Made by a program: the position numbers and the translations under genes. The notes under the pieces are model-generated. The model was not told the origin of the DNA and made no database searches. It saw only the letters and a list, made by a program, of their open reading frames with translations. This document shows, in pieces, positions 1-15,741 of a stretch of DNA of 15,741 nt (its first letter is position 1; each line of letters begins with the position of its first letter). Source of the DNA: an uncultured archaeon (GTDB taxonomy: Archaea; Asgardarchaeota; Lokiarchaeia; Sigyniarchaeales; SOKP01); NCBI GenBank assembly GCA_964508365.1, contig CAZDTP010000075.1, positions 1 to 15,741 on the forward strand, read 5' to 3'.

Positions 1-1
1 A

Positions 2-721
2 ACTTAATGGTTCAGACCAACTTAAATCTTCTCGGAGAATGGCGGTTCTAAAATCATTCACACCTCCTAAAGTTGCATTCATAACTGAACATAAGGTAAT
101 TATATAAGTAATAAATTCAGCTCCTAATTTAGTTGAATTGATGGGCATTACCCGGAAGAAATATTTATATTTAGCATAATCATCTAAAATATTTTGACAA
201 AAAACATCCGATGAGAGACCAGTACCTAAAAAAGGGATTTTTGCGTCCATAAAAAGCTCAAGATATGCTGATACTGATTCAGTTCGATATCCACCTATAA
301 TGAAATGTGGATCATAAGATAGTATTCTATTTGCAGCGTCAATTCCCTTAGATATATCTAAAGTCTCGTTAGCTTCATCAGTGTCTTCTGCTGCTAAACC
401 TACATAAAATTGTGTTGCGTTAATGATAATACCACCAGCTTCGTTAATTTCTCTTGCTGCCAATAGTGCTCCTTTCCATGCATATTCACCCGTGATATCC
501 TTCAGGTCGTCAAGTAACCCAATTCTTATTGATTCATTTAAAGCAATCGAATCTGGAACTCCTGGAAATGTATAATTTCCCACAATAATATCAGATATCT
601 CTGGATCAAGACTCTCAACATCAATTCCCTCTCCAGCATTAAGATTAAAGTAGGTTAAACCTACTAAAAATGGAAGAGAGAATAAAAACAGAAAAGATAA
701 AGTGGCCGCTTTTTTTTTCAT
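2..721 (-). CDS. ABC transporter substrate-binding protein, branched-chain amino acid / periplasmic binding protein type 1 family (partial, runs off the window at its 3' end; absent from the ORF track)
   Basis: Manual translation from ATG at 721 gives 240 open codons: MKKKAATLSFLFLFSLPFLVG (basic N-terminus plus hydrophobic signal/anchor), IRIGLLDDL, GALLAAREINEAGG, FIIGGYRTE, KIPFLGTG, YKYFFRVMP. These blocks are typical of LivJ/LivK-like binding proteins. Confidence 0.85.
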   Translation of the reverse strand, partial: MKKKAATLSFLFLFSLPFLVGLTYFNLNAGEGIDVESLDPEISDIIVGNYTFPGVPDSIALNESIRIGLLDDLKDITGEYAWKGALLAAREINEAGGIIINATQFYVGLAAEDTDEANETLDISKGIDAANRILSYDPHFIIGGYRTESVSAYLELFMDAKIPFLGTGLSSDVFCQNILDDYAKYKYFFRVMPINSTKLGAEFITYIITLCSVMNATLGGVNDFRTAILREDLSWSEPLS

Positions 722-724
722 TAT

Positions 725-730
725 ATCACC
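725..730 (-). promoter_or_regulatory. Shine-Dalgarno site GGTGAT for the substrate-binding protein gene
   Basis: Minus strand reads GGTGAT-ATA-ATG, complementary to the archaeal 16S 3' end (AUCACC). Confidence 0.75.
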
Positions 731-949
731 ATTTAAAGATGATTAATACTCAAATAATAGGATGAATAAAAATTATCCAATGATTTCTTATATTATATAC
801 TAAAATGTCTAGCTATTTAAAATTTATAAATTTAAAAAATTTCAGTGCTACCTACCAAATGGAATTTTCTTATTTAATTTCCAATTAATGTGTTTATATA
901 AATTTGTTAAAATAAGTTTTATAAGGAGTTAAAATAAATTAGTATTATT

Positions 950-2329
<1,380 letters not shown>

Positions 2330-2416
2330 TTATTCACTAACACTTTCTTTCTTAGATCTAGAAATATATTGCCCTTCAAAAAGATTCTTGTGATGTGCTT
2401 CCCATCTTTTTCCCAT
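2330..2416 (-). CDS. Candidate upstream/leader ORF, 28 aa (MGKRWEAHHKNLFEGQYISRSKKESVSE)
   Basis: ATG at 2416 to TAA at 2332-2330, in the same frame as tpl and ending 3 nt (AAA) before the tpl ATG. No homology evidence. Confidence 0.3.
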   Translation of the reverse strand: MGKRWEAHHKNLFEGQYISRSKKESVSE

Positions 2417-2485
2417 TCAAGTGTAAATATTAAAGATTTATTACTTTCAGAGAATAAAATTAAAAATAACAGGAAAAATAAAGAA

Positions 2486-3310
2486 TCAATCCTTCTTTTT
2501 ATGTGCTTTTATTGAAAAAATCATCGGGACTGAATGCTTTAAAGTTTGAAATTCCCAATATTTATCGTCTCTTTGTTTCATATCGGGATGAATCTGAAAA
2601 AAACTAAATGGAAATTCGTGGAGAAATTCTAACTCAAAATTAACTTTTAATAATGAATTAATAACATCTCCCATTGGATGAAACCAATCGTAGGTTTCAA
2701 AATTTTGTAATTTAATATTAGGATCGGCGTATGCTCCATCATCTTCATTAAAATGATAAGGTTTTCCTTCGTTAAAGTAATCGTAGCCAACCTGAAAAGC
2801 ATCATCGTACTTTTCATCGATTAAATTGCCAAAAGGGTGATTATCAGTAATATAAAAAGTACCACCGGGTTTCAGACAATAATCGATTATTTTTGCCCAT
2901 TTATATAAATCTGGTAACCAACTGATAACGCCATTAGATGTGAAAACAACATCAAATTTATTGTCTAAGATATTTGGTATATCGTAAATATTAGCATTAA
3001 TAAAGTTAGCAGGGATATCTAATTCTTCGCTTAACTGTCGTGCAAAAGCTATAGCTTTATCTGAGAAATCTACACCAGTAGCTTTCGCCCCCATTCGCGC
3101 AAAAGAAAGCGTGTCCATACCAAAATGACACTGTAAATGTAATAATGTTTTTCCTTCTATATCTCCTATTTCTTTGCGCTCAATTGGAAAAAGAGAAGAT
3201 TTTCCCGATTTAAATCCATCTAAGTGATATGATCTCGATTTAGCATTGATCTCAACTAATTCGTTCCATCTTCTTAAATTTGTTTTAAAGTATTCCTCGT
3301 TATCTTTCAA
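2486..3310 (-). CDS. Class I SAM-dependent methyltransferase (substrate unknown)
   Basis: Motif I region LLHLQCHFGMDTL, ATGVDFS, FDVVFTS and CLKPGGTFY. TTG start with an SD-like AGTGAT at 3321-3316. Confidence 0.85.
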   Translation of the reverse strand: MKDNEEYFKTNLRRWNELVEINAKSRSYHLDGFKSGKSSLFPIERKEIGDIEGKTLLHLQCHFGMDTLSFARMGAKATGVDFSDKAIAFARQLSEELDIPANFINANIYDIPNILDNKFDVVFTSNGVISWLPDLYKWAKIIDYCLKPGGTFYITDNHPFGNLIDEKYDDAFQVGYDYFNEGKPYHFNEDDGAYADPNIKLQNFETYDWFHPMGDVINSLLKVNFELEFLHEFPFSFFQIHPDMKQRDDKYWEFQTLKHSVPMIFSIKAHKKKD

Positions 3311-3338
3311 ACAAAATCACTTATTTTATTCTGTTACT

Positions 3339-3758
3339 TTAAAACTCCATGCTCTGTAGTTCGTCTTTTGAATTAGTTGTTCCGATTAGCACGCTATTTT
3401 TCATATTCAGATTTTTAAAATTAAGAGAGCTATTCTTAGCAACAACGCAATTCTCCAGTTTAAAGTTCTCTCCAATCTTTACATTGTTAAAGATGATCGT
3501 GTTTGAAATCTCAACGTAGTCTTGAATCTCTGAATTGGCACCTATGTATACATTAGGTCCTAAAAGAACATCGTCTCCAATTTTTACATTGTCTTCTAAA
3601 TAGACGGGTTCAATAAAAGTGGGATAATCTCCCACATAATTTTCAAGACGGTTACTTAATTTTGTGAAGAACCTTTGCATTAATTCTTTAATATCTGATT
3701 TATCGATATCATCAAAATTCCTAATAAGCTCCTCAATCTTAACTAATTCTTCTTTCAT
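3339..3758 (-). CDS. Stand-alone left-handed beta-helix (hexapeptide repeat) protein resembling the C-terminal domain of NDP-sugar pyrophosphorylases
   Basis: Repeats VYLEDN-VKIGDD-VLLGPN-VYIGAN-SEIQDY-VEISNT-IIFNNVKIGEN. SD-like GAGGA at 3766-3762. No nucleotidyltransferase domain. Confidence 0.75.
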   Translation of the reverse strand: MKEELVKIEELIRNFDDIDKSDIKELMQRFFTKLSNRLENYVGDYPTFIEPVYLEDNVKIGDDVLLGPNVYIGANSEIQDYVEISNTIIFNNVKIGENFKLENCVVAKNSSLNFKNLNMKNSVLIGTTNSKDELQSMEF

Positions 3759-3778
3759 AATTCCTCAATAACTTTGGT

Positions 3779-4495
3779 TTATAATCCCATTAAATTCATT
3801 AATTTATCAATATTCTCCCCAGTTTTTGCGCTTGTTGTAATTACTTCTATTTTGGGGTTAATTTTTTTTGCATCAGAGATCATTTTATCGACATCAGTTC
3901 CAAGGCGTTCCTTTAAATCGAACTTATTAATTACGGCAATATCTGACATTTTAAAGAGCATTGGATGCTTTTCAACAACCCATTCTCCTTCAGTTGTTGA
4001 TACTACAATTAATCTCTTATCAGTTCCTAAAATAAAATCTGATGGGCATATCAAATTTCCTACATTCTCAATAAAGACAACGTCATAATTTTTTAAATCT
4101 TTGTTTTTGATTATTTTGTGAATATGATAAGCGTTTAAGGCGCATTCTCGACCTGTATTGATCTGAATGGTTTCAGCATTGTGTTTTTCAATACGATCAG
4201 CATCCAATCGAGTTGTAATATCCCCACAAATCACTAATATTCGGTATTGTGAGGACAATTTCGCGGTTATCTTTTCTAATAAAGCAGTTTTCCCTGATCC
4301 GATAGCCCCTACAATATCAAATGATTTTATATTATTATCTATAAAACTCTGATGAACTTTATTAGCTAATAAATCGTTATCTCTTTCTACTGCTTTCTTG
4401 GTCTCGATTACTTCGTCTCTTATATCATCTCGAGCTAAATTAATACTTTCGATTTCTTTAATTCTTGATATTGTTTTATCTTCCTTATCTGACAT
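3779..4495 (-). CDS. hypB: HypB-like nickel-insertion GTPase (SIMIBI G3E family), archaeal type
   Basis: P-loop GAIGSGKT, GD..T..DA.RI, INTGREC, FIENVGNLICP, VSTTEG, EKHP, INKFD. The ORF track starts at GTG 4504; ATG at 4495 is preferred. Confidence 0.85.
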   Translation of the reverse strand: MSDKEDKTISRIKEIESINLARDDIRDEVIETKKAVERDNDLLANKVHQSFIDNNIKSFDIVGAIGSGKTALLEKITAKLSSQYRILVICGDITTRLDADRIEKHNAETIQINTGRECALNAYHIHKIIKNKDLKNYDVVFIENVGNLICPSDFILGTDKRLIVVSTTEGEWVVEKHPMLFKMSDIAVINKFDLKERLGTDVDKMISDAKKINPKIEVITTSAKTGENIDKLMNLMGL

Positions 4496-4689
4496 TGAAA
4501 ACACATTGTTGTTTTTATGTTATTAATATTAGAAATAATTTCAATTTTTTGATATTCCATATTCCTTCCATATTTGGTGCTAATTACTTTTGGGATTAAA
4601 TTTCCCGTTCTTTATTATCTGTTATTTGACATCATAATAAGTTTTTTAAAAATTTATTAAATCTGATTAGAAATCCTTAATTTTAGATT

Positions 4690-4698
4690 AAAAAAAAA
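4690..4698 (-). terminator. Oligo-T (T9) putative archaeal terminator after the EamA gene
   Basis: T9 run on the minus strand about 20 nt after the stop codon at 4718. Confidence 0.4.
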
Positions 4699-4717
4699 TC
4701 AAAATAAGGATCTTCAT

Positions 4718-5629
4718 TTATTTTAAATATTTTAGCGTAATATAATTAGCTAATAGAAGAAAAAAACCTCCTATGATAGTGAAAATAGAGAGATTCTTTA
4801 AAAAAATTGCGGTATTAATAGTTGCCATAACAGGTTCAAAATACGATAAAATTATAATATTACCTCCTTTATCTTTTTTCACTCCAACATTATACAAAGT
4901 AAACGCTAAAGCAGTAGGGATAAGCCCTAGCATTAAAATAAATATTAAATCCAAAATTGTGATTCTAAATAAATCTGTAATACTAAATGGTAGAAATGGA
5001 AAAATTAAGAATACAGTTGACCATAAAGTTAAAAATGTATCAAAATTTCCATTCGAATTAATTTTTCCTCTAATTTTATAAATTTTTTTTTTAGAAAAAA
5101 TCAATATACCTAAGCAAAAACCTGAAAAAATCCCAATAACTATTCCCAAAATTAAAATTTGACCGGTCCAAAATTCCATTATAATGGATATTCCCACAAT
5201 TGCTAAAATGAAACTAATAAAGTTGATTTTTGATACTTTATCTTCTTTCGTTATTACTAAAAAGATTAATAGAAAAACACCACTAGTATATAATAAGAAA
5301 GCTGCAAAAGCATAACTAGTGAATGTTATATTCAGAAAGTAAAGATATACTACTAATGGATTAGAAATTGCTATTATAATTAAATATTTCCAGTGCATTT
5401 TGAAACACTCTTTAAAGAAAGAAATAGAAAAAGATCTTGTTATTAGCATAAATATAGTTAGAAAAGCCGCTCCAAAAATACCTCTGAACAAGACTATTGA
5501 ATAAATTGGATACCCACTTAATAAAGAAATAAATATCCCCACATTTCCCATTAAAATTCCTGATAAGAACATGCTTATTTTGGAAACTGTTAGATTAAAA
5601 TGAGCGTCATTTAATTCCTCTATGGTCAT
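4718..5629 (-). CDS. EamA/DMT family transporter
   Basis: About 300 aa with about 10 hydrophobic segments in two similar halves. VLFRGIFG, FLLYTSGVF, GLIPTALAFTLY and SYFEPVMA match DMT patterns. Confidence 0.85.
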   Translation of the reverse strand: MTIEELNDAHFNLTVSKISMFLSGILMGNVGIFISLLSGYPIYSIVLFRGIFGAAFLTIFMLITRSFSISFFKECFKMHWKYLIIIAISNPLVVYLYFLNITFTSYAFAAFLLYTSGVFLLIFLVITKEDKVSKINFISFILAIVGISIIMEFWTGQILILGIVIGIFSGFCLGILIFSKKKIYKIRGKINSNGNFDTFLTLWSTVFLIFPFLPFSITDLFRITILDLIFILMLGLIPTALAFTLYNVGVKKDKGGNIIILSYFEPVMATINTAIFLKNLSIFTIIGGFFLLLANYITLKYLK

Positions 5630-5800
5630 TGTATTGTAGAAGTTAATAATGTTTTAATTCTATTGGAATTTAATAATTCATAAACAAAATTGGTGTAAAT
5701 CTAAAAATTATCTGGTATTAATAGGCTACTTATCAACTTCATATTAATTGGGAGGAAAAGGAATAAAATTCCATTAAAAACATACCTATCTATTAATTGA

Positions 5801-7168
5801 TTAATTTTTAAATCCGCACTTAGGACAATTAGAAGTACCTCTTAAAGTGAAACCACATATCTTGCATAATTTAATAGTACTTTTTCTTGGGGGTTTCAGG
5901 GTAGTTATAGAAATCGTTTCTTTAACTTGAGTGGAACCTTCTGCTTCGCTTATTATTGTTTCAGTTGGAGATGAAAGCAGATTTCCGATTGATTCCTTCT
6001 CTTTAACTGTTATATCCTGCCCAAAATACCCTCCAACTCTGATTTTTTTAGCTGGAGGGGATTCTTGTGGAATATTGTGTAAGCTTGGAGGGGTTTTAAG
6101 AATTTCAGGATTTAGGATTCTTTCGCCAATCGTTATTTTTTGGTCTTCTTCATCAGAGGTAATTTCGTTGATCGTTTGAACCTCAGAGATATCTTCTTCA
6201 ACTTCTTCCTCCGTGATCTCTTCAATTTCTCTATCTTGCTCTACTTCTTCTACATGTTCTTCTTCATAAATCATCTTCACATAGTCTTCGTCGAGTTTTA
6301 AGAGTGTATCGCATTGGATGCATCTAAATAAGTGTTTAAAGCCTATATTATTCGATATTGAATAATCTGCAGCGCAACACGCATGATACTTAGCACCACA
6401 ATTAAAACATTTATGAACTTCGTCTGAATAAGCGCTGCAAATGGGACATACTTCTTTTTCGCAAATATCGCACTTTTCTTCATCATCAGGATCAAGCGAA
6501 ATCAAATCTACTGCTAATTTTTCATAAAAGATCTTATCTTCATTAAGCATTTGATTATCTAATTCAGGTTGTACTACAATAAATTCTGACTTACTCTGGA
6601 GTAAAGATGTGAGTATGTTTAAGAAAGATTTTTCTTCGTCACAATAGAGAACTCCTCCATGTGTTTCGCTTGTAACCACTTTCAATTTTACATCGTCGTT
6701 GTAGAACTTTTGATCTCCTACGCGGATGATGTCAATAAACGTATCAAATTTTTTCGCTTTGATTAGTAGATCGTAAAGAGCATTGTGATAATCATCAGAT
6801 AACGTACTAGGTGTGTCTGAAATTAATATTACCCTATAATTTTTTCGAGCTTCTCGACTTTTTCTGAATATATAAGCTAATATTTCGAATAACCCATTTT
6901 CAAACAAACTTCTTTCAGTTTCTCGAGTTTCCCATTTTTCGTTTAATAACTTTTCATACGATTCAAAATCACTTTCATCATAAAAAGTCACTGGATTATC
7001 CTCTTTTTGAAATAGTAAAAGACCATAAGAAGTTTGAGTATTGAATTTAGCTTTTTCTTTCATGAAAGTACTAATACTCTTGATAAGATTCTTTTTCTTT
7101 AAAAAATCTGTTATGAGATCAACGTAAAAGATAAATTCTTCAGAATTCACTGACTTTTTCTTAAACAT
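5801..7168 (-). CDS. vWA domain + PHD-like Cys/His zinc finger + acidic linker + C-terminal zinc ribbon protein (paralogue A)
   Basis: vWA elements FIFYVD, YGLLLF, SLFENGL, RVILISD, FIDIIRVG and ETHGGVLY. C-x2-C-x4-C-x2-C-x9-C-x2-C-x4-H-x-C-C-x13-H-x3-C-x2-C at about 6311-6472. Terminal CKIC..CPKC. The track starts at TTG 7180; ATG 7168 is preferred. Confidence 0.75.
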   Translation of the reverse strand: MFKKKSVNSEEFIFYVDLITDFLKKKNLIKSISTFMKEKAKFNTQTSYGLLLFQKEDNPVTFYDESDFESYEKLLNEKWETRETERSLFENGLFEILAYIFRKSREARKNYRVILISDTPSTLSDDYHNALYDLLIKAKKFDTFIDIIRVGDQKFYNDDVKLKVVTSETHGGVLYCDEEKSFLNILTSLLQSKSEFIVVQPELDNQMLNEDKIFYEKLAVDLISLDPDDEEKCDICEKEVCPICSAYSDEVHKCFNCGAKYHACCAADYSISNNIGFKHLFRCIQCDTLLKLDEDYVKMIYEEEHVEEVEQDREIEEITEEEVEEDISEVQTINEITSDEEDQKITIGERILNPEILKTPPSLHNIPQESPPAKKIRVGGYFGQDITVKEKESIGNLLSSPTETIISEAEGSTQVKETISITTLKPPRKSTIKLCKICGFTLRGTSNCPKCGFKN

Positions 7169-7269
7169 CTTACGTTCCAAGTGAAATATAAATTATATCC
7201 AAAATAAAAGTAATTTTATATACAATAATAAGAGAATTTTTATTTATTTTTATGGATTAAAATTCGAAA

Positions 7270-8649
7270 TTAAACATCAAGTTTGAATCCGCAGTAAGAA
7301 CAGGATTTTTTATTAATGTCACTCTCTTTTAATTGCGTTCCGCATCCAGGACAAGTTATAAAAGTCGATCTTTTTCGATCTTCGGAAGAACTCCAATATT
7401 TTGGAATTTCCGGTTTTTTAAGATTAATTGGTGTTGTCGAATCGATCTTATTAACATCTAACTGGCGAGATTCTTTATCTTTATCGAGACGGGTCACTTT
7501 TTCATACACTAATTTATCACCTTCTTTTTTAATAGTGTACGTCTTTCCAAAAAACCCTCCAAGCCTTACTCTTTGAACGCCTTGTTTTGATAATTCTGAA
7601 TTTGTAGTCTCAAGTGATTTTTCAGCATTTATTGAAGAATCTTCAATATCAATAGAGTCAGGTTCAGAAATAATAGTGTACTCGTTTACATCCATGCTTT
7701 CTTCTTCAGATTCTAAATATTCATCAATATTTTTAGCTGAATCCTCGAAAGGTACTACGATTTCTTCTTGTCTAATTTTTAAGAGAATCTCACATTTTGG
7801 ACACCTAAAAAGATGCGGAATGCCTATATTATTCTGAATCGTGTAATTAGTCACACAGCAATTATGAAATGCCGCTCCACATCCTTCACAAAGTTGCAAT
7901 GTATCATTTATATCAGCACAACATGGACAAATTTCTTCTTGGCATATATAACATTTCAAACCAACATCATTGGTGGGTGAAGGTTTTAAACTCTTAGCTA
8001 GACGAGAATAAAAATCATAATCATCTTTACTTATTTTAATTTTTTCTGAATTATCTCCTAATAAATTAACGATTTGTTTAGTTTCGGATAATTGTTTAAT
8101 AATCGGAAGGATATCTTTTCTATCTGAGAGATAAAATATCCCACCATTCGTGTCGCTAGCGAGTATGTTTAATTTAACATCATCTTTAAAAAATCGTTCT
8201 TCTTTCTCTGAAACTCGTATAATATCTATAAATGTAGGTATAGCTTTTATTTTAGAAACCAATCCGAATAGTGCTTCCGTATAATCTTCAGATAGATCGC
8301 TTGGTGTATCAGTAATTATGATTATTCTGTTATGTCTTGATTTTTTCTTTATACTTTCAGCGATATACGAGAAGATATAAAATAAACCATTTTCAAAAAA
8401 GGATCGCTTTTTTGGGCGAGATTTCCAATTTTCTTCAATAGCATTTTCTATAATGCTAGAATCTTTTTTACCAGTTATAAAAATTGGATTTCCTTCTTCT
8501 TGAAATATCAGTAAACCATAATGCCCTTTAATATTCGTTTTATTTTTTTGAGATATAAAATACTTAATACCTTTGATAACTTCTTTCTTCTTTAAGATGT
8601 CTTTCGTTAAATCTAAATAAAAAAAAATATCTTCGTAAGGAGAACTCAT
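7270..8649 (-). CDS. vWA domain + PHD-like Cys/His zinc finger + acidic linker + C-terminal zinc ribbon protein (paralogue B)
   Basis: Same blocks as paralogue A (IFFYLD, YGLLIF, SFFENGL, RIIIITD, TFIDIIRV, DTNGGIFY). Identical finger spacing at about 7792-7953. Terminal CPGC..CSYC. The track starts at TTG 8667; ATG 8649 is preferred. Confidence 0.75.
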   Translation of the reverse strand: MSSPYEDIFFYLDLTKDILKKKEVIKGIKYFISQKNKTNIKGHYGLLIFQEEGNPIFITGKKDSSIIENAIEENWKSRPKKRSFFENGLFYIFSYIAESIKKKSRHNRIIIITDTPSDLSEDYTEALFGLVSKIKAIPTFIDIIRVSEKEERFFKDDVKLNILASDTNGGIFYLSDRKDILPIIKQLSETKQIVNLLGDNSEKIKISKDDYDFYSRLAKSLKPSPTNDVGLKCYICQEEICPCCADINDTLQLCEGCGAAFHNCCVTNYTIQNNIGIPHLFRCPKCEILLKIRQEEIVVPFEDSAKNIDEYLESEEESMDVNEYTIISEPDSIDIEDSSINAEKSLETTNSELSKQGVQRVRLGGFFGKTYTIKKEGDKLVYEKVTRLDKDKESRQLDVNKIDSTTPINLKKPEIPKYWSSSEDRKRSTFITCPGCGTQLKESDINKKSCSYCGFKLDV

Positions 8650-8784
8650 AATGATTTTGAGTACCAATAAGATTTATAATTTAGTGTAGAAAGTTATTCT
8701 TTAAATATTTTTTTTATCTAAAAAACTTTAAAAAATAAATATTTATTGTACATATTATTAAAAAGAAAAAGGAATGAGCTTAAA

Positions 8785-10770
8785 ATGGAAGAATTTTTAA
8801 AAAACTTTCAACTTTCAGATAACGCTATTAAATTATACATTAAATGCATTGGTCAACAACCCTTATCATCTCTTGAACTCTATTCAATTTTACCAAATAT
8901 GGCTCAAGAAGATTTTAATAAAGTATTAGAAGACCTCATTGATAATGGCTTATTCGTTTCAAATTCCAATCAAAACCAAGATGTAATTTTGCAATACTTA
9001 GCAATCCCTCCAATAAAACCTATATTAAATTATTATGCAAACATTAACAATAATCTAAATAACATTAAAAGCCAATTACAACTTCTGCTCTCAAACTCTT
9101 TAGCAAAAATTTTCCAGGATAATCAGATAATTGAATTGAATACGGTGTATAACGCAGCACAAGAATTAAGAAAAGATGTCGAAGAAGATATTATCATCCA
9201 GAAACAAGATATTGATGATATTGTACAAGGAATGGAAAATTTAAACATCATAAAAGATGTTTTGGAGAACTTACGTCAAACAATCAAGGGAGTAACTCAA
9301 ACTCAATTTTCATCGCTAATCAAACTAATTGCCAATATTAAAAATGAAATTTACAGTAAAATCGAGAGTTTAGAATTAAAAAAATCAGAGAATGTTGTAA
9401 AAGAAATAGTCGAAGAAGCCTTCAAGGAAAATTTTAATAAATTGCTTGGAGATTTTACTGCCAACTTACATAAATTGATTGGAGACGAGTTTGACAATAC
9501 AATCGAATCGCTTAATAATATTCTGGATTCAACATTTCAATTTCGAGACGATTTTAAGATGGTACTACTTAATATGCTGTCTACAAATGAAAAAAAGATT
9601 AAAAATATAATTGAACAGATCCAAACTAAGAAAACACTCTTAGAAAAGGACCTTAAAGAGTTCGAAAAAATAATAGTCGATAATTTCACCGAAATAATAG
9701 AAAAATCCGTCGATTCGGTAGCATCCTTAAATGAACCAATTAATAATACTTTAGACAACTATTTTAATACAATTATAAAATCAAATGAGCTAGAAACCGA
9801 TAACATTTGGCGAATCAAAAGTAAAGCAAGAGTAAAAGAAGAAATAAGTAATATTATCTCTCATTCTACTCAAAATTTATTGTTAGTTGTCCCAAAACTA
9901 GAAGAAAATTTATCATTTGATGATTTTAAAGATATTCCAAGTAGCATTAAAATTCAAATTGCTTCCTCAGAAGCTCATACTAATAGTCTCGTTAAAAAAT
10001 ATAAAGATTTAAAGAACTTCGAATACAGAATCCTTAAAAACGAAAATGTTATCATTTGTAGAGGGGACGAAGAAAACCTTTTAATTGGTATCATAGATAC
10101 GGAATCAAAAAATTCTTCAGATAATTTTATTGGTTTCGCGTCAAGAAATAAATCTCTAATAAAATTGTTCCATTTTGTTGTTAAAGCGATATGGGATATT
10201 AGTAGCTCGAGTTTGCATGAAAAGCCTAGAACTCTTAATATAACGGTTTCAAAAACAAGTAACGTTTTAAAAACTCCTATAACCACAAAAATATCTGAAC
10301 CTATTGGACCATCTCCGATTGAAACAACGATAAAAACTACTCCTACTCCTATAACTAAAAAACCGGTTATTATTCAAGAAAAAAAACAAAAGGCTGAATC
10401 CTCGGAAGGTAAAATTGCACATTTAGCTGAAAAACTCAATAACAAAATCAAAGAACCTAAAGAAGTACAGGAATCCGATCAAATACCTAAACATACTAAA
10501 GAGCCAAAGATACTTGATGAATCTGGAATTGTAATAAATAACGCGTTTAAGAATTTAATCAATAACCTACATAAGCTTAAGGGCGATGAAGTCAGTAAAG
10601 AAATGGCGATTATCGCAGATTTGATTTTAGAGAAAAAAGGATTTAGTGTTACCCTTCACAAGATTAGAAGCAAAATAAACCAATATAAAAATCGCCTAAG
10701 TCATTTAAACGATGCTGATATTAATAGCATTATTGAAAGTATTGAAGAATGGAAGGAACACATTCTATAA
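8785..10770 (+). CDS. TrmB-like protein: N-terminal winged HTH, long helical/coiled-coil insert, TrmB effector-binding-like (PLD-like) domain, Thr/Pro-rich linker, C-terminal helical domain
   Basis: N-terminal FQLSDNAIKLY..PLSSLEL..VLEDLIDNGL..YLAIPP matches the TrmB HTH pattern. IWRIKSK..EEISNII...LLLVVP and ICRGDEENLLIG..IGF..N..LIKLF..IW match the TrmB C-terminal pattern. The track starts at TTG 8746; ATG 8785 is preferred. Confidence 0.6.
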   Translation: MEEFLKNFQLSDNAIKLYIKCIGQQPLSSLELYSILPNMAQEDFNKVLEDLIDNGLFVSNSNQNQDVILQYLAIPPIKPILNYYANINNNLNNIKSQLQLLLSNSLAKIFQDNQIIELNTVYNAAQELRKDVEEDIIIQKQDIDDIVQGMENLNIIKDVLENLRQTIKGVTQTQFSSLIKLIANIKNEIYSKIESLELKKSENVVKEIVEEAFKENFNKLLGDFTANLHKLIGDEFDNTIESLNNILDSTFQFRDDFKMVLLNMLSTNEKKIKNIIEQIQTKKTLLEKDLKEFEKIIVDNFTEIIEKSVDSVASLNEPINNTLDNYFNTIIKSNELETDNIWRIKSKARVKEEISNIISHSTQNLLLVVPKLEENLSFDDFKDIPSSIKIQIASSEAHTNSLVKKYKDLKNFEYRILKNENVIICRGDEENLLIGIIDTESKNSSDNFIGFASRNKSLIKLFHFVVKAIWDISSSSLHEKPRTLNITVSKTSNVLKTPITTKISEPIGPSPIETTIKTTPTPITKKPVIIQEKKQKAESSEGKIAHLAEKLNNKIKEPKEVQESDQIPKHTKEPKILDESGIVINNAFKNLINNLHKLKGDEVSKEMAIIADLILEKKGFSVTLHKIRSKINQYKNRLSHLNDADINSIIESIEEWKEHIL

Positions 10771-10810
10771 CTCGCATAAGTTTGAACCTTTTAAAAAATT
10801 CCTATAATAA

Positions 10811-11596
10811 TTAATCTGGTTTTGTATCTTTCCCTTTTGCGAGTAAGTTCAACAAAAAAGAGTGAAAGGTTACCCAAACAAGCAATGTAATAAATGCTAT
10901 CAAAAAAATAATTGCTACAGTCATTGATACTATAAAATTGGGATTTAATATACCAATGAGCCCAAAAATAGGAGAAAGTGGAGCGAAAAGAATAAAAAGA
11001 TAATACACACTTTTACCTTTTTCACCAAATTTAATGTAAGTAGTTATATTTAACCACCCAATAAAAGCTAATAGAAAGGGCACAATATAATAAGCTATAT
11101 CCAAGAAAGGATAAGTTAAACCACCAAATGCAAACGCGTAAAAATAATTTGTATAGAAGAATCCTATTATTAAAAGACAACTTACAGGTGTAGGTACACC
11201 TGTATATCCAGGATTTTCGAGGATATTAAATCTAGCTAACCTTAATACTGCACCTAAGGCGAAACATATGCATCCAATTACTAGGATAAAATCGTAGACT
11301 GTTCCAGTTTTGAATGCTTGAAATGACAAAATTGCTGGGACAATACCGAACGTTAAAGAATCGCTTAGAGAATCTAATTCTCTGCCCATATCGTTTACAG
11401 TTCCCGTTTTTCTTGCAATATAGCCATCAATAAGATCGGTACCTAAAGTAATTGTGATTAAAAAAAAACCTAAGGAAACAGCATCCCTGGTTCCAAATGA
11501 ACCACAAATCAACGCAATAATTCCTATCGTGGTCCCTATAAGCGTTATGTAATCTTTAAATTTTAATAAGCTTGGTATCGTTGATTTTAGTGACAT
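10811..11596 (-). CDS. pssA: CDP-alcohol phosphatidyltransferase, PssA-like (probable archaetidylserine/phosphatidylserine synthase)
   Basis: Family motif DLIDGYIAR-x8-G-x2-LDSLSD, plus PssA-type SLTFGIVPA, LRLARFN and GVPTP. Multiple TM segments. Confidence 0.8.
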   Translation of the reverse strand: MSLKSTIPSLLKFKDYITLIGTTIGIIALICGSFGTRDAVSLGFFLITITLGTDLIDGYIARKTGTVNDMGRELDSLSDSLTFGIVPAILSFQAFKTGTVYDFILVIGCICFALGAVLRLARFNILENPGYTGVPTPVSCLLIIGFFYTNYFYAFAFGGLTYPFLDIAYYIVPFLLAFIGWLNITTYIKFGEKGKSVYYLFILFAPLSPIFGLIGILNPNFIVSMTVAIIFLIAFITLLVWVTFHSFLLNLLAKGKDTKPD

Positions 11597-11666
11597 TTTT
11601 TTCCCACTTCTTTTTTATATTATAATTAAAATTTTAGTTTAATTAAAACATTTCTTTATAATGCAA

Positions 11667-11690
11667 GTAGGGATTCCAAACTATCCTTAC
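11667..11690. promoter_or_regulatory. Imperfect inverted repeat GTAGGGAT-N8-ATCCTTAC in the divergent pssA / LURP-one intergenic region (possible operator)
   Basis: 8-bp arms with one mismatch, GC-richer than the surrounding AT-rich spacer. Confidence 0.3.
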
Positions 11691-11760
11691 ATTTATTAGA
11701 CTAAATTGATTATTCATGATTAAACTAAAATATTGATAAATTATAGAAAAGGTTTATTTT

Positions 11761-12543
11761 ATGAAGTGCCCAAATTGTGGAGACCCTGCTAGTGAAGATC
11801 AGAAATTTTGTGAAAAATGTGGTTCTGAACTACGATCTATTAAGAGCCAACCCAAAAATCAAAATCAAATTAGTTTAACTTCAACTCCAAAACAAACACC
11901 TCTAGAAAGTGCTAGTTTGTTTAATATAAACCGTAATTATTATATAATTAAAGAACGCATGTGGGATATGGGATACGGCGATATTATGGATGAAGAGGGA
12001 AAGCTCATCGGAAGAATGAATAGAATTCTTTTTAGCATAAGGAGAAGAGTTGAACTTCAAGAACTTGATGGAACGGTTGTTGCCACCATTCATAGTAAAA
12101 TAGTTTCTGCTCGTGGGGCCCAAGATTTGAAAACCCCAGATGGAGAACTTATCGCAAGAATTAAAAAGAAAATATTAACATTCTTTAGATCGAAATTCTT
12201 TTTAGAAGATCCTCTCGGTACACGCTGGTTTGAAGCTGATGGGGACTTTTTTGGTTGGTCGTTTAAAATCTACGATTTAACTACGGGAAAATTAGTTGCC
12301 GAAATAGAAAAAGCAGATAGATGGAGAGATGTCTTCTTAGGTGGAATCTTTGACTTTGCAGATAGATACGCCCTAAGAATTTTAGACAATGAGACTGATA
12401 GAAGGATTTTAGTAGGTTTTGTTTTGTCCATTGATAATGTGATGCACGATAGTGGTGGAATGGGGCCAATGATTGGTGGAATGGGGCCAGGCCGCCGTGG
12501 AAGGTTTCCAGGTCCTTTTGGAGGCCCTCGTCGTAGAATGTGA
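11761..12543 (+). CDS. Zinc ribbon + LURP-one-related/scramblase (Tubby-like barrel) protein with a Gly/Pro/Arg-rich tail
   Basis: N-terminal CPNCG-x9-CEKCG. Repeated beta-hairpin units (D.EG.LIG, ELDGTVVA.I, TPDGELIA.IKKK, FEADGDFFGWSFKI, LVAEIEK). Terminal hydrophobic helix RRILVGFVLSID. Confidence 0.75.
   Translation: MKCPNCGDPASEDQKFCEKCGSELRSIKSQPKNQNQISLTSTPKQTPLESASLFNINRNYYIIKERMWDMGYGDIMDEEGKLIGRMNRILFSIRRRVELQELDGTVVATIHSKIVSARGAQDLKTPDGELIARIKKKILTFFRSKFFLEDPLGTRWFEADGDFFGWSFKIYDLTTGKLVAEIEKADRWRDVFLGGIFDFADRYALRILDNETDRRILVGFVLSIDNVMHDSGGMGPMIGGMGPGRRGRFPGPFGGPRRRM
12453..12489 (+). repeat. 16-bp direct repeat (TGGTGGAATGGGGCCA x2, 21-nt period) encoding GGMGP twice
   Basis: Exact copies at 12453-12468 and 12474-12489. 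Confidence 0.9.
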
Positions 12544-12552
12544 TTCAAGAAG

Positions 12553-12566
12553 TTTTTATATAAAAA
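12553..12566. terminator. Putative bidirectional terminator between convergent genes
   Basis: Palindrome TTTTTATATAAAAA gives a T5 on each strand; a further T-run lies near 12578-12584. Confidence 0.35.
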
Positions 12567-12589
12567 TAATTCCCATCTTTTTTTAATTC

Positions 12590-13081
12590 TTATAACTCTC
12601 TTCCACAATTCTTACAAAATTTCCAAATATGAGAAATCTCTTCCCCACAATTAAAACATCTATTAGTTAAAGGTATTACCTCAAAATCGCCAACATTCTG
12701 TGTGTTTTTATTTGCTTTAATTGCGAGTAATATTGTAGAATTGATTATTTCACTTAAATTAATACTTTCTTGGCGTCCACTACTTCTTTCATTCGCCATA
12801 GTTATAGAAAACGAAAGACCATCCCTGGTTTCAATTACTACAACATAGATTTTTTGGATTGTTGCAACATACGCTTTTTCAATTTGCGTTAAAGGAATTA
12901 CAAAGCCTTCTTTGTAATTATCAACCGAGGAACCTATTTCAGTAAGTTTTATATTTGATTTTTTTACGAGTGATAGTTCCAATGCTGATAAAATGATTCT
13001 TCCATATTCCATCTTGAACTTCCAATCCTTTTCTACTTCCCCTTCGCAAAAATAACCCTTGGTACTATAAACCAATGCCAT
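12590..13081 (-). CDS. PH/GRAM-like fold protein with C-terminal zinc ribbon
   Basis: YGRIILSALELSLV (G-x-h-x-L-T/S-x3-L-x-h), FVIPLTQIEKA (IPL..I), VVIETRDGLSFSI (I.T.DG..F) and a closing helix INLSEIINSTIL follow the PH-superfold pattern. Ends with CFNCG-x9-CKNCG. Confidence 0.6.
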   Translation of the reverse strand: MALVYSTKGYFCEGEVEKDWKFKMEYGRIILSALELSLVKKSNIKLTEIGSSVDNYKEGFVIPLTQIEKAYVATIQKIYVVVIETRDGLSFSITMANERSSGRQESINLSEIINSTILLAIKANKNTQNVGDFEVIPLTNRCFNCGEEISHIWKFCKNCGREL

Positions 13082-13260
13082 TTTTTTTGACTTTTTCCTA
13101 TTTTTAATAATATAAATTTATTTCTTAGTTTCTTATTCTATATGTGTACTACCGTCTTAATAAGTTCTAGTAGTCCAATTTTTAAAAAGAGCAAAAATTT
13201 TTATAGATATAATTTGATTATACTTTAAAAACCTTAATATAAAGAAAAAGAGAGAAAAAA

Positions 13261-13794
13261 ATGTCGCTTCAAAAGACTAGAGAATTTATGCTTCGTGAGA
13301 AAATGATTTCTTTAACAGATAAAGGCGAAATCAGGAATATAGAAAACGAATTACTTGGAACATTTAGAGGAAAATTAATTAAGATTGGTAATACCTACCG
13401 GATAAGAGATCTTGATGAAGTTCCTATATTAACGATTCAAGAAAAATTAATCTCCTTACGTGCTATTTACAAGTTTTATAAGGGAGGGGAAAAAGAGGAC
13501 GATAAATTAATTGGGCAACTTAAAAGAAAGATCGTAGCCATTAAGCCAAGTTATTGGTTTGAGGATCCTAATGAGAATAGAGTTTTCACGATGAAAGGAA
13601 ACATCTTGACGCTTAAATTCAAAATTTTTAAAGATGGTCAAGAGGTTGCCGAAATACGAAAAAAATTATGGAAAAGTCTTCTAAAGAATACTTTTGGAAT
13701 AAAAATGTCTCCAGACCTTGACGACGATTCTGCAATGCTTATTCTTGGGATAGTCATTATGCTCCACCACGAGAAAGAGGAAAATAGAAATTAA
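13261..13794 (+). CDS. LURP-one-related/scramblase (Tubby-like barrel) protein, second copy, without zinc ribbon or tail
   Basis: FMLREKMISL, YRIRD.DE.PIL.IQEKLIS, IGQLKRKI, FTMKGNIL..KFKI..DGQEVAEIRKK and terminal helix AMLILGIVIML. Confidence 0.75.
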   Translation: MSLQKTREFMLREKMISLTDKGEIRNIENELLGTFRGKLIKIGNTYRIRDLDEVPILTIQEKLISLRAIYKFYKGGEKEDDKLIGQLKRKIVAIKPSYWFEDPNENRVFTMKGNILTLKFKIFKDGQEVAEIRKKLWKSLLKNTFGIKMSPDLDDDSAMLILGIVIMLHHEKEENRN

Positions 13795-13813
13795 GCGTTA
13801 TAAGATTAGGCTG

Positions 13814-13857
13814 TTTGTTTGTTTTTCTTATTTTATTTTTTTTATTCTATTATTTTT
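13814..13857 (+). terminator. T-rich putative terminator after the second LURP-one gene
   Basis: Several T-tracts, including T8 at 13836-13843, starting about 20 nt after the stop. Confidence 0.45.
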
Positions 13858-13987
13858 AACGAAAGCAAGTGAGTTTTTGAATAGATTTTAATATCGGAAA
13901 TTTTATATTTTGGTAAAAAGACTATTTCGTTAAATAGCCCTTTTTTAAATCAATTCTATAAATTTAAATATGTTCTAAAAATAACTT

Positions 13988-14914
13988 ATGACCGAAATTT
14001 ACGAAGAATTCATAGTTTATGATTTACAGAACACGGGAGAACGCACGAAATTAAATATTAAGCCAGAAGAGCTTCAAAATCATTTAAATCCTGAACAAGT
14101 GCTAATAATAATACGTGAGGACCTTAGGAGGATTTACATTTGGAAAGGCTCGAAATCTCCTGTAAGAAAAAGGTTCATAAGCTCTCGAGTAGCACAGGAT
14201 TTGCAAAAAAATTTAATTGATGACTCTCGGTATCATAGATGTAAAATAATCTCCATAGATCAAGGAGATGAACTGCAAGAATTTTTAAACGCGTTCAGGT
14301 TGGAATCTATGGAAGTAATAGAACGGCTTCCCGATATGCGCTATATAAGAAACATTGAGCGCGACAGATTGCTCGAGCAAGAACGCCTTGCGAAAGAAAA
14401 GAAAGAGGGGAAGGTGAAACTTGATGACGATTATTATTCTCCAGCTTTAGAAGATACAACTGATGATGTGGTAATGTCATCAATTGGAATAGGGATCCCT
14501 TTGAATAAGGAAAGAGATCGATTGGTACGACATTCAAAAATTAGCGCAACTATTGGATTAGCAGACGAGGAAAAAGAAAAAATCAAAGAAAAAATATTAA
14601 AGATTAGCATCCCCGAAAATATGGAGCGACAAAACTTAATTCTTGGACATAACTTATATGGTGCTGTTTCGAAAGTAACAGATGTTTTTGGAAAGAATGT
14701 CGTAGAAGTTGTTTGGGAGGAAGTTAAAAAGGTTCCGAAAGGTGTACTTGAATTGGATGAGAACGTCTTTAGAGTTTATTTTGATGATAAAAAAGGGATA
14801 GTCGAAGCAGTAGAAGTACTCAAGAAAAGTGAAGAGTTATCCGAAGGTAATATTGAAAAACCTAAGCCCACTACTAGAAGAGAACTGCCAAAAATCCCTA
14901 GTAGCGAAGATTAA
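13988..14914 (+). CDS. Single gelsolin-domain protein with C-terminal extension (Asgard 1DGelX-like actin regulator)
   Basis: Residues about 5-105 show the gelsolin repeat pattern LNPEQVLIII..D.RRIYIWKG.KS...KRF.SSR.A..L...IISIDQGDE.QEFL..F. A charged helical segment and a C-terminal alpha/beta region follow. Confidence 0.8.
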   Translation: MTEIYEEFIVYDLQNTGERTKLNIKPEELQNHLNPEQVLIIIREDLRRIYIWKGSKSPVRKRFISSRVAQDLQKNLIDDSRYHRCKIISIDQGDELQEFLNAFRLESMEVIERLPDMRYIRNIERDRLLEQERLAKEKKEGKVKLDDDYYSPALEDTTDDVVMSSIGIGIPLNKERDRLVRHSKISATIGLADEEKEKIKEKILKISIPENMERQNLILGHNLYGAVSKVTDVFGKNVVEVVWEEVKKVPKGVLELDENVFRVYFDDKKGIVEAVEVLKKSEELSEGNIEKPKPTTRRELPKIPSSED

Positions 14915-14944
14915 GGATTAGATAATCTTTATTAATTAATATTT

Positions 14945-14953
14945 AAAAAAAAA
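14945..14953 (-). terminator. Oligo-T (T9) putative terminator after the HEAT gene
   Basis: A9 run on the plus strand, about 28 nt beyond the minus-strand stop at 14981, in a convergent gap. Confidence 0.4.
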
Positions 14954-14980
14954 GTAAATTAAATGAGATTCTCGTTAATT

Positions 14981-15655
14981 TTATAGTTCGTACGAATCTT
15001 CGTCTTCTACATCAATCTCTCTGAGGGTATCCTCTTCTTCATCTTTCAAGTCATCGTGATCAGCAATTTTTTGTTCGGTTTCAACTGGTTTTGATACTTT
15101 TTCTTCCTCTTCCTCTTTTTTCGCTTCTACTTTTTTCTCGGGTTTGTTTTTCTTTTTAATTTTCTTTAAACCCTCTATTGCCTCTTTTCGCACTATAGGA
15201 CTTGGATCTTTTAGAGCTTTCGCTAGCACATCAAGAGAGTAAGGGTGATGAAAATCGCCCAATTCATCAGCAGCTTCTTGTCGAACAATTTCGTCTCTGT
15301 CGTTTAATAGGATGTAAGCAAAAACTCCCAAAACCTCGTTTTCTCCTAAATCTCCTAATGTGTCTACAGCGTCTTTCCTAACGCCGGGATTAGGATCTGT
15401 TAAAGCCGTGTTGGCTAATTCCTTTAATGTTCTATCCGAATATCCAAGCGGTTGAATACCGCTTAAATCAACTCCGCAAAATTTGCAAAAATTATGCCCA
15501 ATTTTAATGACTTTTCCGCACGCAAGGCAAATACGCTGGGTTTCAAAATCAATTATAGGATTTGTAAAACTCGTGGGAGTTGGCTCACGTACAGGTTCTC
15601 TATTTACCCTATAAGGATTGTTCGTACGATCTTGATTATACCTATCGTTTCCCAT
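14981..15655 (-). CDS. Zinc ribbon + PBS-lyase-type HEAT repeat protein with acidic tail
   Basis: CLACG-x9-CKFCG followed by three HEAT-like repeats (DPNPGVRKDAVDTLG, DRDEIVRQEAADELG, DPSPIVRKEAIEGL) and a K/E/D-rich tail. Confidence 0.8.
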   Translation of the reverse strand: MGNDRYNQDRTNNPYRVNREPVREPTPTSFTNPIIDFETQRICLACGKVIKIGHNFCKFCGVDLSGIQPLGYSDRTLKELANTALTDPNPGVRKDAVDTLGDLGENEVLGVFAYILLNDRDEIVRQEAADELGDFHHPYSLDVLAKALKDPSPIVRKEAIEGLKKIKKKNKPEKKVEAKKEEEEEKVSKPVETEQKIADHDDLKDEEEDTLREIDVEDEDSYEL

Positions 15656-15741
15656 TTTATATACTCTTTTTTTTATTTCTCTAGATTACTCCTTTTACCT
15701 TATGATTATAATAGAATTTAGTTTTAATTAACTTAATGGAG

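Follow-up and report, generated by a model that had tools for sequence, protein, structure and literature searches.

The subject of this article is a pair of adjacent genes, here called A and B, that lie in a 15,741-nucleotide stretch of DNA (the window) from an uncultured archaeon of the Sigyniarchaeales (Asgardarchaeota, Lokiarchaeia, SOKP01; assembly GCA_964508365.1, contig CAZDTP010000075.1, positions 1 to 15,741 of the forward strand). Both are read from the minus strand, gene A at 5801-7168 (455 residues, likely start ATG 7168) and gene B at 7270-8649 (459 residues, likely start ATG 8649); their open reading frames (ORFs) extend over 5801-7180 and 7270-8667 before a start is chosen, and the databases hold an identical 455-residue entry for A and a 459-residue entry for B. 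The two proteins are paralogues that align over their full length at 35% identity (BLASTP, expect value (E) 1e-85), and they share a four-part layout: a vWA domain, a Cys/His finger with three predicted zinc sites, an acidic linker and a C4 zinc ribbon. An initial annotation, made without database searches, had already described this co-oriented pair and its common layout at 5801-8649, and the ORFs and BLASTP agree with it; the blocks that it listed as shared (YGLL.FQ.E.NP, FENGLF, DTPS.LS.DY, TFIDIIRV and DDVKL) each occur in A and in B, and the linkers, which it called diverged, can be aligned at two places only, a GG(F/Y)FG island and the terminal ribbon. It had also supposed that such proteins were not previously characterised in Asgard archaea, and a literature search indeed found no description of the family, nor any paper on Asgard counterparts of p44 and p34, subunits of transcription factor IIH (TFIIH). 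A and B belong to a family, so far undescribed, of vWA-RING/PHD zinc-finger proteins that are cytosolic and found in Lokiarchaeia only, although the joining of vWA and RING in one architecture is itself already known (p44, plant RGLG/WAV3).

The N-terminal domain of A (residues 14-198; 6587-7141, minus strand) was modelled with AlphaFold2 (AF2) from a 17-row alignment, and residues 15-195 take the classical beta-alpha-beta order of strands and helices of a vWA domain at a predicted local distance difference test (pLDDT) score of 75-93, as the initial annotation had proposed; the domain of B (residues 12-198; 8074-8634, minus strand) was placed by colinear alignment to the modelled domain of A. 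The metal ion-dependent adhesion site (MIDAS) is degenerate in both (A reads DLITD there, B DLTKD), and the later Ser and Asp positions are kept and invariant (S91 and D122 in A, S89 and D120 in B). More than 120 orthologues of A and more than 120 of B were found among the database matches, and DxSxS is absent from all 118 A orthologues and all 118 B orthologues counted for this motif. DxSxS is not needed for membership of the vWA fold, and Rpn10 is also without it. Pfam and NCBIfam models gave no significant match to either protein, the best being VWA at E 0.12 for A, with no VWA match for B, and the models for Ssl1 (PF04056, at E up to 1), Tfb4 (PF03850) and C1_4 (PF07975) matched neither A nor B. 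Any link from A and B to a vWA sequence model is transitive only, running through the relatives P0395, P0263 and P0269.

Structure comparison carries the assignment further. With the model of A as query, Foldseek ranked chains of Tfb4/p34 and Ssl1/p44 at the top (E 1e-10 to 1e-7 over 300-360 alignment columns), followed by Rpn10, ITIH1 and MERIT40, and VIA-align superposed model residues 10-292 on residues 55-387 of p44, that is, on its vWA domain and C-terminal RING, with 233-235 residues aligned and a Z of 18.2; the vWA domain of A superposes on p44 at Z 18 with a root-mean-square deviation (rmsd) of 2.7-3.0 over 175-181 residues. The two TFIIH subunits that the initial annotation had named are therefore the best structural matches, ahead of Rpn10, MERIT40 and Sec23/24, and they are also the nearest eukaryotic neighbours by language-model features, where the closest named clusters were Promethearchaeota VWA/Ssl1 (0.94), eukaryotic p44 (0.87-0.89) and Tfb4 (0.84), values that serve as leads only. 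It would be tempting to see in A and B the archaeal counterparts of p44 and p34, that is, a vWA/zinc-finger scaffold that binds and regulates helicases of the XPD or XPB type in repair or transcription. The VIA comparisons are less selective than that: Z is 17.7 for ArnB, 16.9 for Rpn10 and 15.9 for Sec23/24, p44, Rpn10 and ArnB all superpose at Z 16-18 with an rmsd of about 3 Å over 175-185 residues, and the p44 alignment, which includes the finger, scores no higher than alignments of the vWA domain alone. Since ArnB and Rpn10 fall within about one Z unit of p44, A is a cytosolic vWA of the p44/Rpn10/ArnB type with p44 not singled out; an ESM Atlas shape search returned generic vWA rows only and did not discriminate among them. 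The vWA domains of A and B are of the p44/Rpn10 type with the metal site lost, and a vWA without its metal site is usable only as a protein-docking surface.

Each of the known systems resembles the pair in part. Rpn10 (PSMD4) likewise uses a MIDAS-degenerate cytosolic vWA as its docking domain, but it carries helices with ubiquitin-interacting motifs, has no zinc fingers and does not occur as a tandem pair. ArnB, a regulator of the Sulfolobus archaellum, is an archaeal cytosolic vWA protein with a zinc-finger partner (ArnA-ArnB, PDB 8s05), yet its vWA is followed by a beta-sandwich and helical domain, it has no finger of its own, and its regulation is driven by phosphorylation (PMC12852372). 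Plant RGLG and WAV3 (the latter mentioned as an ArnB look-alike in PMC12852372) are, going by the descriptions available, ubiquitin ligases (E3) in which vWA and RING stand in one chain for docking the substrate and recruiting the ubiquitin-conjugating enzyme (E2); by the same descriptions RGLG is set apart by a vWA that keeps its MIDAS, a canonical RING-HC finger and its eukaryotic origin.

The finger, the linker island and the ribbon

The finger of A (residues 237-295; 6296-6472, minus strand; pLDDT about 70-80) is defined by invariant columns, among which C237, C240, C258, C261, H266, C269, C287 and C290 form a C4HC3 core and C245, C248, C268 and H283 are additional candidate ligands. The finger of B (7774-7953, minus strand) repeats the arrangement in invariant columns at C239, C242, C247, C250, C260, C263, H268, C270, C271, H285, C289 and C292, with a Pro after the Cys at core ligand 7 (Cys7). 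When the orthologues of A and of B are aligned with more distant relatives, the eight core ligands hardly vary throughout the superfamily and the extra ones are clade-specific: the second CxxC, the extra Cys before ligand 6 and the His (H283 in A) are present in all 121 A and all 109 B orthologues scored. The extra Cys before ligand 6 occurs in 35 of 39 representatives that have the additional CxxC and in 7 of 69 that do not, counts that come from related sequences and are not independent observations. From this co-occurrence I infer a third zinc site, and the ligand pattern suggests that the finger of A and B is a cross-brace C4HC3 core to which that putative site was added.

Beyond the finger, A carries an acidic linker (residues 300-375; 6056-6283, minus strand) that is unalignable among orthologues, and pLDDT falls below 50 at residues 308-390; AF2 leaves residues 308-433 disordered and then builds a small ribbon at the end of the chain. 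Within this otherwise diverged region lies a conserved island of the form K(V/I)(R/K)(V/I)GG(F/Y)FG, present in 120 orthologues of A and as many of B, which reads K-K-(I/V)-R-V-G-G-Y-F-G in A (residues 378-388; 6017-6049, minus strand; G383, G384, F386 and G387 invariant) and (R/K)-(V/I)-R-(I/L)-G-G-F-F-G-K in the alignment of B orthologues (7543-7575, minus strand). Two interpretations of the island were considered and set aside. Its RxGG could recall a ubiquitin-like C-terminus, which is ruled out by the disorder of the preceding residues and the lack of a beta-grasp fold in the AF2 model, and an Agenet/Tudor reading of the GG(Y/F)FG region was dropped, its one Agenet-like match, in a search of the family profile against PDB sequences, being a lone weak one in the range E 0.5-7. 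The chains end in C4 ribbons, with invariant C439, C442, C452 and C455 in A (5813-5866, minus strand; weak generic zinc-ribbon matches) and C439, C442, C456 and C459 in the B orthologue alignment (7288-7353, minus strand). As a separate observation, the finger module is reused in six larger Lokiarchaeial proteins of about 1090-1120 residues (P0233, P0241, P0245, P0246, P0247 and P0252), which match the family only at the end of the vWA domain and the finger (profile positions of about 177-350, at residues of about 220-400).

Relatives and the age of the duplication

The family profile reaches remote members in which a canonical vWA domain is joined to PHD/RING fingers. Two further proteins, P0394 (contig C9, 814-2013, minus strand) and P0395 (contig C12, 769-1944, minus strand), are encoded in the same genome as A and B, unlinked to each other and to the pair. 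These genes of about 400 codons combine a vWA with an intact DxSxS and two RING/PHD/C1-like fingers, and they pass the Pfam Ssl1 model at 36.6 and 33.8 bits respectively against a cut-off of 27, as well as VWA_2 and VWA, with P0394 also reaching Tfb4 below threshold (21.4 bits against 27). Their best matches among PDB sequences are Rpn10 at 8e-7 (for P0394) and p44/Ssl1 at 1e-5 to 4e-5. A and B are connected to them in steps: both match, at E 1e-59 to 1e-74, a gene that other Lokiarchaeia have in one copy, and this single-copy homologue in turn matches P0395 over the vWA and finger (BLASTP, E 4e-13). Because this chain runs on from P0395 to the Ssl1 and Rpn10 matches, it supports homology of the vWA-finger part of A and B to the vWA of p44/Rpn10 type. 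P0394 and P0395 share with the pair membership of one superfamily, a homologous vWA and first finger, a common R-C-P-x-C-x2-L-L-K motif and the same class-restricted distribution, but they differ in keeping the MIDAS intact and in passing VWA_2, VWA and Ssl1, none of which A or B does, and in having a second RING/C1-like finger in place of the linker and ribbon, without the third zinc site. A and B are derived members of the superfamily and not its p44-like ones, and genes of the P0394/P0395 type are the better candidates for relatives of p44. Head-to-head with P0394 on contig C9 lies a gene for an Arf/Gtr1-RagA-like small GTPase of 402 residues (2191-3399, plus strand).

A survey of 399 species-level genomes of the phylum at E 1e-5 matched A in 156, all of them in the window's own class (Lokiarchaeia), including 131 of the 134 genomes of its own taxonomic family (f1), and in 0 of 243 genomes of other Asgard classes; the Pfam Ssl1 model follows the same class-restricted pattern, with hits in 151 of the 399, mostly two genes each. 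Some close homologues (55-60% identity) are labelled Thor-, Hod-, Hermod- or Odinarchaeota at NCBI, submitter labels that may be unreliable. Despite those labels, a pan-Asgard family was rejected, as the survey gave no match outside the class. In three closed genomes of the sister family (f3) there is either one full-length member or two unlinked ones.

Trees rooted on MIDAS-intact members recover A as a clade with a Shimodaira-Hasegawa approximate likelihood ratio test (SH-aLRT) support of 99-100, B with 100 and the two as sisters with 96-99; the single-copy genes of the sister family form a separate clade, and A and B are nested inside the single-copy lineages. Since A and B are sisters within single-copy lineages, the duplication falls at the base of one Lokiarchaeia family and is not the duplication that gave p44 and p34. 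What the initial annotation had called an old retained duplication holds in so far as the pair is retained and is old within one taxonomic family, but the trees do not date it to the Asgard phylum. The A/B split is recent, independent of p44/p34 and specific to that one family.

This bears directly on the TFIIH interpretation. The likeness to p44 (GTF2H2, Ssl1) and p34 (GTF2H3, Tfb4) is real in several respects, since these too are a pair of vWA paralogues with an N-terminal cytosolic vWA followed by zinc modules that include a cross-brace finger, they give the best structural match, and p34 also ends in a C4 finger; in addition, the genome encodes one XPD-like helicase, on another contig, and the paralogues P0394 and P0395 pass Ssl1. 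The order of the zinc modules, as the initial annotation had remarked, is nonetheless unlike that of p44, which has a C4 finger and then a C-terminal RING, whereas A and B have one three-zinc finger and a distant ribbon with no C1_4 match, and between the two a long acidic linker with its GG(F/Y)FG island. Added to the failure of both proteins against Ssl1, Tfb4 and C1_4, the proximity of ArnB and Rpn10 in Z, the confinement of the duplication to one family, the empty result in the 243 genomes of other Asgard classes and the lack of any helicase gene in the conserved neighbourhood of 12 sampled loci, this makes it very unlikely that A and B act as the archaeal counterparts of the TFIIH subunits. 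A one-to-one correspondence of A and B with p44 and p34 falls with the trees, which place them as sister clades in single-copy lineages, and with the Ssl1, Tfb4 and C1_4 thresholds that neither reaches.

The conserved neighbourhood

Adjacency of the two genes, on which the initial annotation had built its idea of a complex, is widespread among relatives: in 28 genomes among the matches listed, B and A share a strand with B directly upstream, and when 12 loci from at least 10 genera of the window's family were sampled, 10 carried the pair and two a single copy. At 45-60% identity, both copies and their order have been preserved in at least 10 genera. In the window, B and A are separated by an AT-rich spacer of 101 nucleotides with TATA-like runs (7169-7269, minus strand), which may hold a promoter of A's own; ORF coordinates put the corresponding spacers of related loci at about 90-230 nucleotides.

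A constant companion within the window's taxonomic family is a gene of about 650 codons that stands beside the pair or single copy in all 12 sampled loci, head-to-head in 11 and about 2.4 kb off in one. In the window it occupies 8785-10770 (plus strand, 661 residues) and is divided from B by an AT-rich divergent intergenic region of 135 nucleotides (8650-8784), an arrangement kept in the same 11 loci. The AF2 model (mean pLDDT 72.5) is composed of a winged helix (residues 1-73), a helical rod (77-332), an alpha/beta domain like that of phospholipase D (PLD; 341-472), a disordered stretch (485-576) and a helical end domain (579-660), and Foldseek matches it to TrmBL2 (E 6.8e-8), the PLD-fold protein NucT (1.3e-6) and TrmB (1.6e-5). 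The layout of the TrmB family, an N-terminal winged helix with a C-terminal PLD-like domain, is thus recognised by fold search alone, as neither Pfam, including its TrmB model, nor PDB sequences gave a match. TrmBL2 is an archaeal chromatin protein, from which the neighbour differs in its rod insert of about 250 residues, an extra disordered linker and the C-terminal helical domain. At least three paralogues of the TrmBL2-like protein are encoded elsewhere in the same genome (contigs C64, C96 and C115).

Further out, the sampled loci hold a CDP-alcohol phosphatidyltransferase gene, LURP-one/scramblase-like genes (in nine of 12) and a gelsolin-like gene, which invites the thought that A and B serve a membrane-lipid and cytoskeleton module, given that the block of gelsolin-like, LOR, CDP-OH_P_transf, TrmB-like, B and A genes recurs in all 12 loci. 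I consider this highly improbable: the genes alternate in orientation and form separate transcription units, A and B show no membrane or lipid-binding feature, and the block is missing around the single-copy relatives elsewhere. In the window this region spans 10811-14914 and holds the CDP-alcohol phosphatidyltransferase, two LURP-one/scramblase-like proteins (of which one has a zinc ribbon at its N-terminus), a small zinc-ribbon protein and the gelsolin-like protein. On the other side of the pair lies a beta-eliminating lyase of the tryptophanase/tyrosine phenol-lyase type (950-2326, minus strand; Pfam E 7e-75), followed by a class I methyltransferase, a hexapeptide transferase and a CobW/HypB-type GTPase.

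A possible asymmetric adaptor and what it would mean

Judged from sequence and with its geometry predicted, the invariant C4HC3 set of the finger satisfies the eight-ligand cross-brace pattern of RING-type E3 enzymes, and three further positions deserve attention: in canonical RING ligases of the c-Cbl and BRCA1 type, the residue two after the first Cys (Cys1+2), the one four after ligand 6 (ligand 6+4) and the one after Cys7 contact the E2. In the family, Cys1+2 is hydrophobic throughout (in A, Ile in 115 of 121 orthologues; in B, Leu, Phe or Ile), and ligand 6+4, which is Trp among basal members, is Tyr in A and B. Cys7 is followed by Pro in all 109 B orthologues scored and in none of the 121 of A, whose residue there is Ile, Val, Leu or Thr. 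These contact-like residues, the retention of the pair and the presence in the same genome of three E2 and four ubiquitin-like genes are among the support for a reading to which I would give an even chance: that the pair is an asymmetric docking or E3-ligase-like adaptor in which B contacts the E2, probably acting on or with the TrmBL2-like protein. A and B would then work together, with B, which keeps the RING-type Pro after Cys7, engaging an E2-like protein, and A, having lost that Pro, acting as its scaffolding partner in the manner of the BRCA1/BARD1-type RING pairs, while recruitment of clients would fall to the vWA domains, the ribbons and the linker island. The DNA-binding TrmBL2-like protein encoded head-to-head with B would be the most likely partner or target, and with such a partner the module would act at the level of chromatin or transcription.

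Several observations weigh against this adaptor reading, and a number of them favour a PHD-type protein instead. The spacing from ligand 3 to ligand 6, C-x2-C-x4-H-x2-C, is that of a PHD finger and not of a canonical RING, in A and B as in their relatives; together with the aromatic residue two positions before Cys7 (F285 in A, F287 in B, both invariant) it satisfies the PHD pattern, and most PHD fingers are readers, not ligases. The relative P0166, alone among them, passes the Pfam PHD model (26.8 bits against a threshold of 24), while A and B themselves have no significant Pfam match to RING, PHD or vWA. As to the genes around the pair, an order kept within a single taxonomic family might in part be owed to common descent, and in the three closed genomes of the sister family the vWA-finger gene is unlinked to TrmBL2-like homologues, so the linkage is not ancestral. 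The E2 and ubiquitin-like genes lie on other contigs, the AT-rich spacer suggests that A and B are possibly transcribed separately, and the binding of A to B, of either to an E2 and of either to the TrmBL2-like protein is in each case a prediction. A complex prediction with A residues 5-305 and B residues 7-308, run with separate alignments, gave interaction prediction scores from aligned errors (ipSAE) of 0.05 and 0.03, where the mark to reach is 0.32; this result weighs neither way.

The PHD-like features could mean that A and B serve as co-factors of chromatin or transcription independently of ubiquitin, in which the finger reads a protein tail or DNA and the vWA domain bridges to the TrmBL2-like protein. 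The linkage to that gene in all 12 loci suits such a role as well, and searches of the family profile against PDB sequences gave weak PHD matches on the finger, alongside weak RING-box and NSE1 ones (E 0.5-7). I nevertheless regard it as rather unlikely, in view of the RING-like contacts that are kept (the hydrophobic Cys1+2, the aromatic ligand 6+4 and, in B, the Pro after Cys7) and of the matches of basal members, below threshold, to Prok-RING_1 and zf-RING_2.

Another way to read the pair is as subfunctionalised duplicates that do not interact, each working alone or as a homo-oligomer, with their adjacency a mere trace of tandem duplication. Single-copy relatives work alone in other Lokiarchaeia, two of the sampled loci of the window's own family have one copy, and the spacer hints at separate promoters; against this, both copies have been retained in the same order through at least 10 genera, and A and B differ in a complementary way at the Pro after Cys7, which makes this explanation a distinctly unlikely one, and the asymmetric adaptor is the reading carried forward here.

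Four observations are new: the dating of the duplication by trees, the finding that the TrmBL2-like gene is syntenic at genus level together with the fold of its product, the difference between A and B at the Pro after Cys7, and the co-occurrence of the third-zinc ligands. Their reach is bounded by a single class, a recent A/B split and a function that is so far inferred. To my knowledge, the non-helicase core subunits p44 and p34 of TFIIH have no accepted prokaryotic relatives, and a bolder proposal, which I think is probably wrong, is that the vWA-RING superfamily of Lokiarchaeia, with A, B and the members of about 400 residues that match Ssl1, is an archaeal sister group to p44/p34 (perhaps also to Rpn10), and that in the window's taxonomic family A and B were recruited with the TrmBL2-like protein into a DNA-associated E3-like complex; if true, the vWA/zinc-finger scaffolds found in eukaryotic machines for transcription and repair would have a precedent among prokaryotes. 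The family is abundant and strongly conserved, its fold is nearest to p44 and its less derived paralogues pass Ssl1, which makes it a candidate for the origin of that architecture. Since single-copy relatives are present in closed genomes (4.36, 6.04 and 4.32 Mb), which may include those of cultivated strains, these ideas could be taken to the bench, and a RING/PHD module that comes as a pair and is linked to a TrmBL2-like DNA-binding protein would constitute a new kind of archaeal regulatory or ubiquitin-type machinery.

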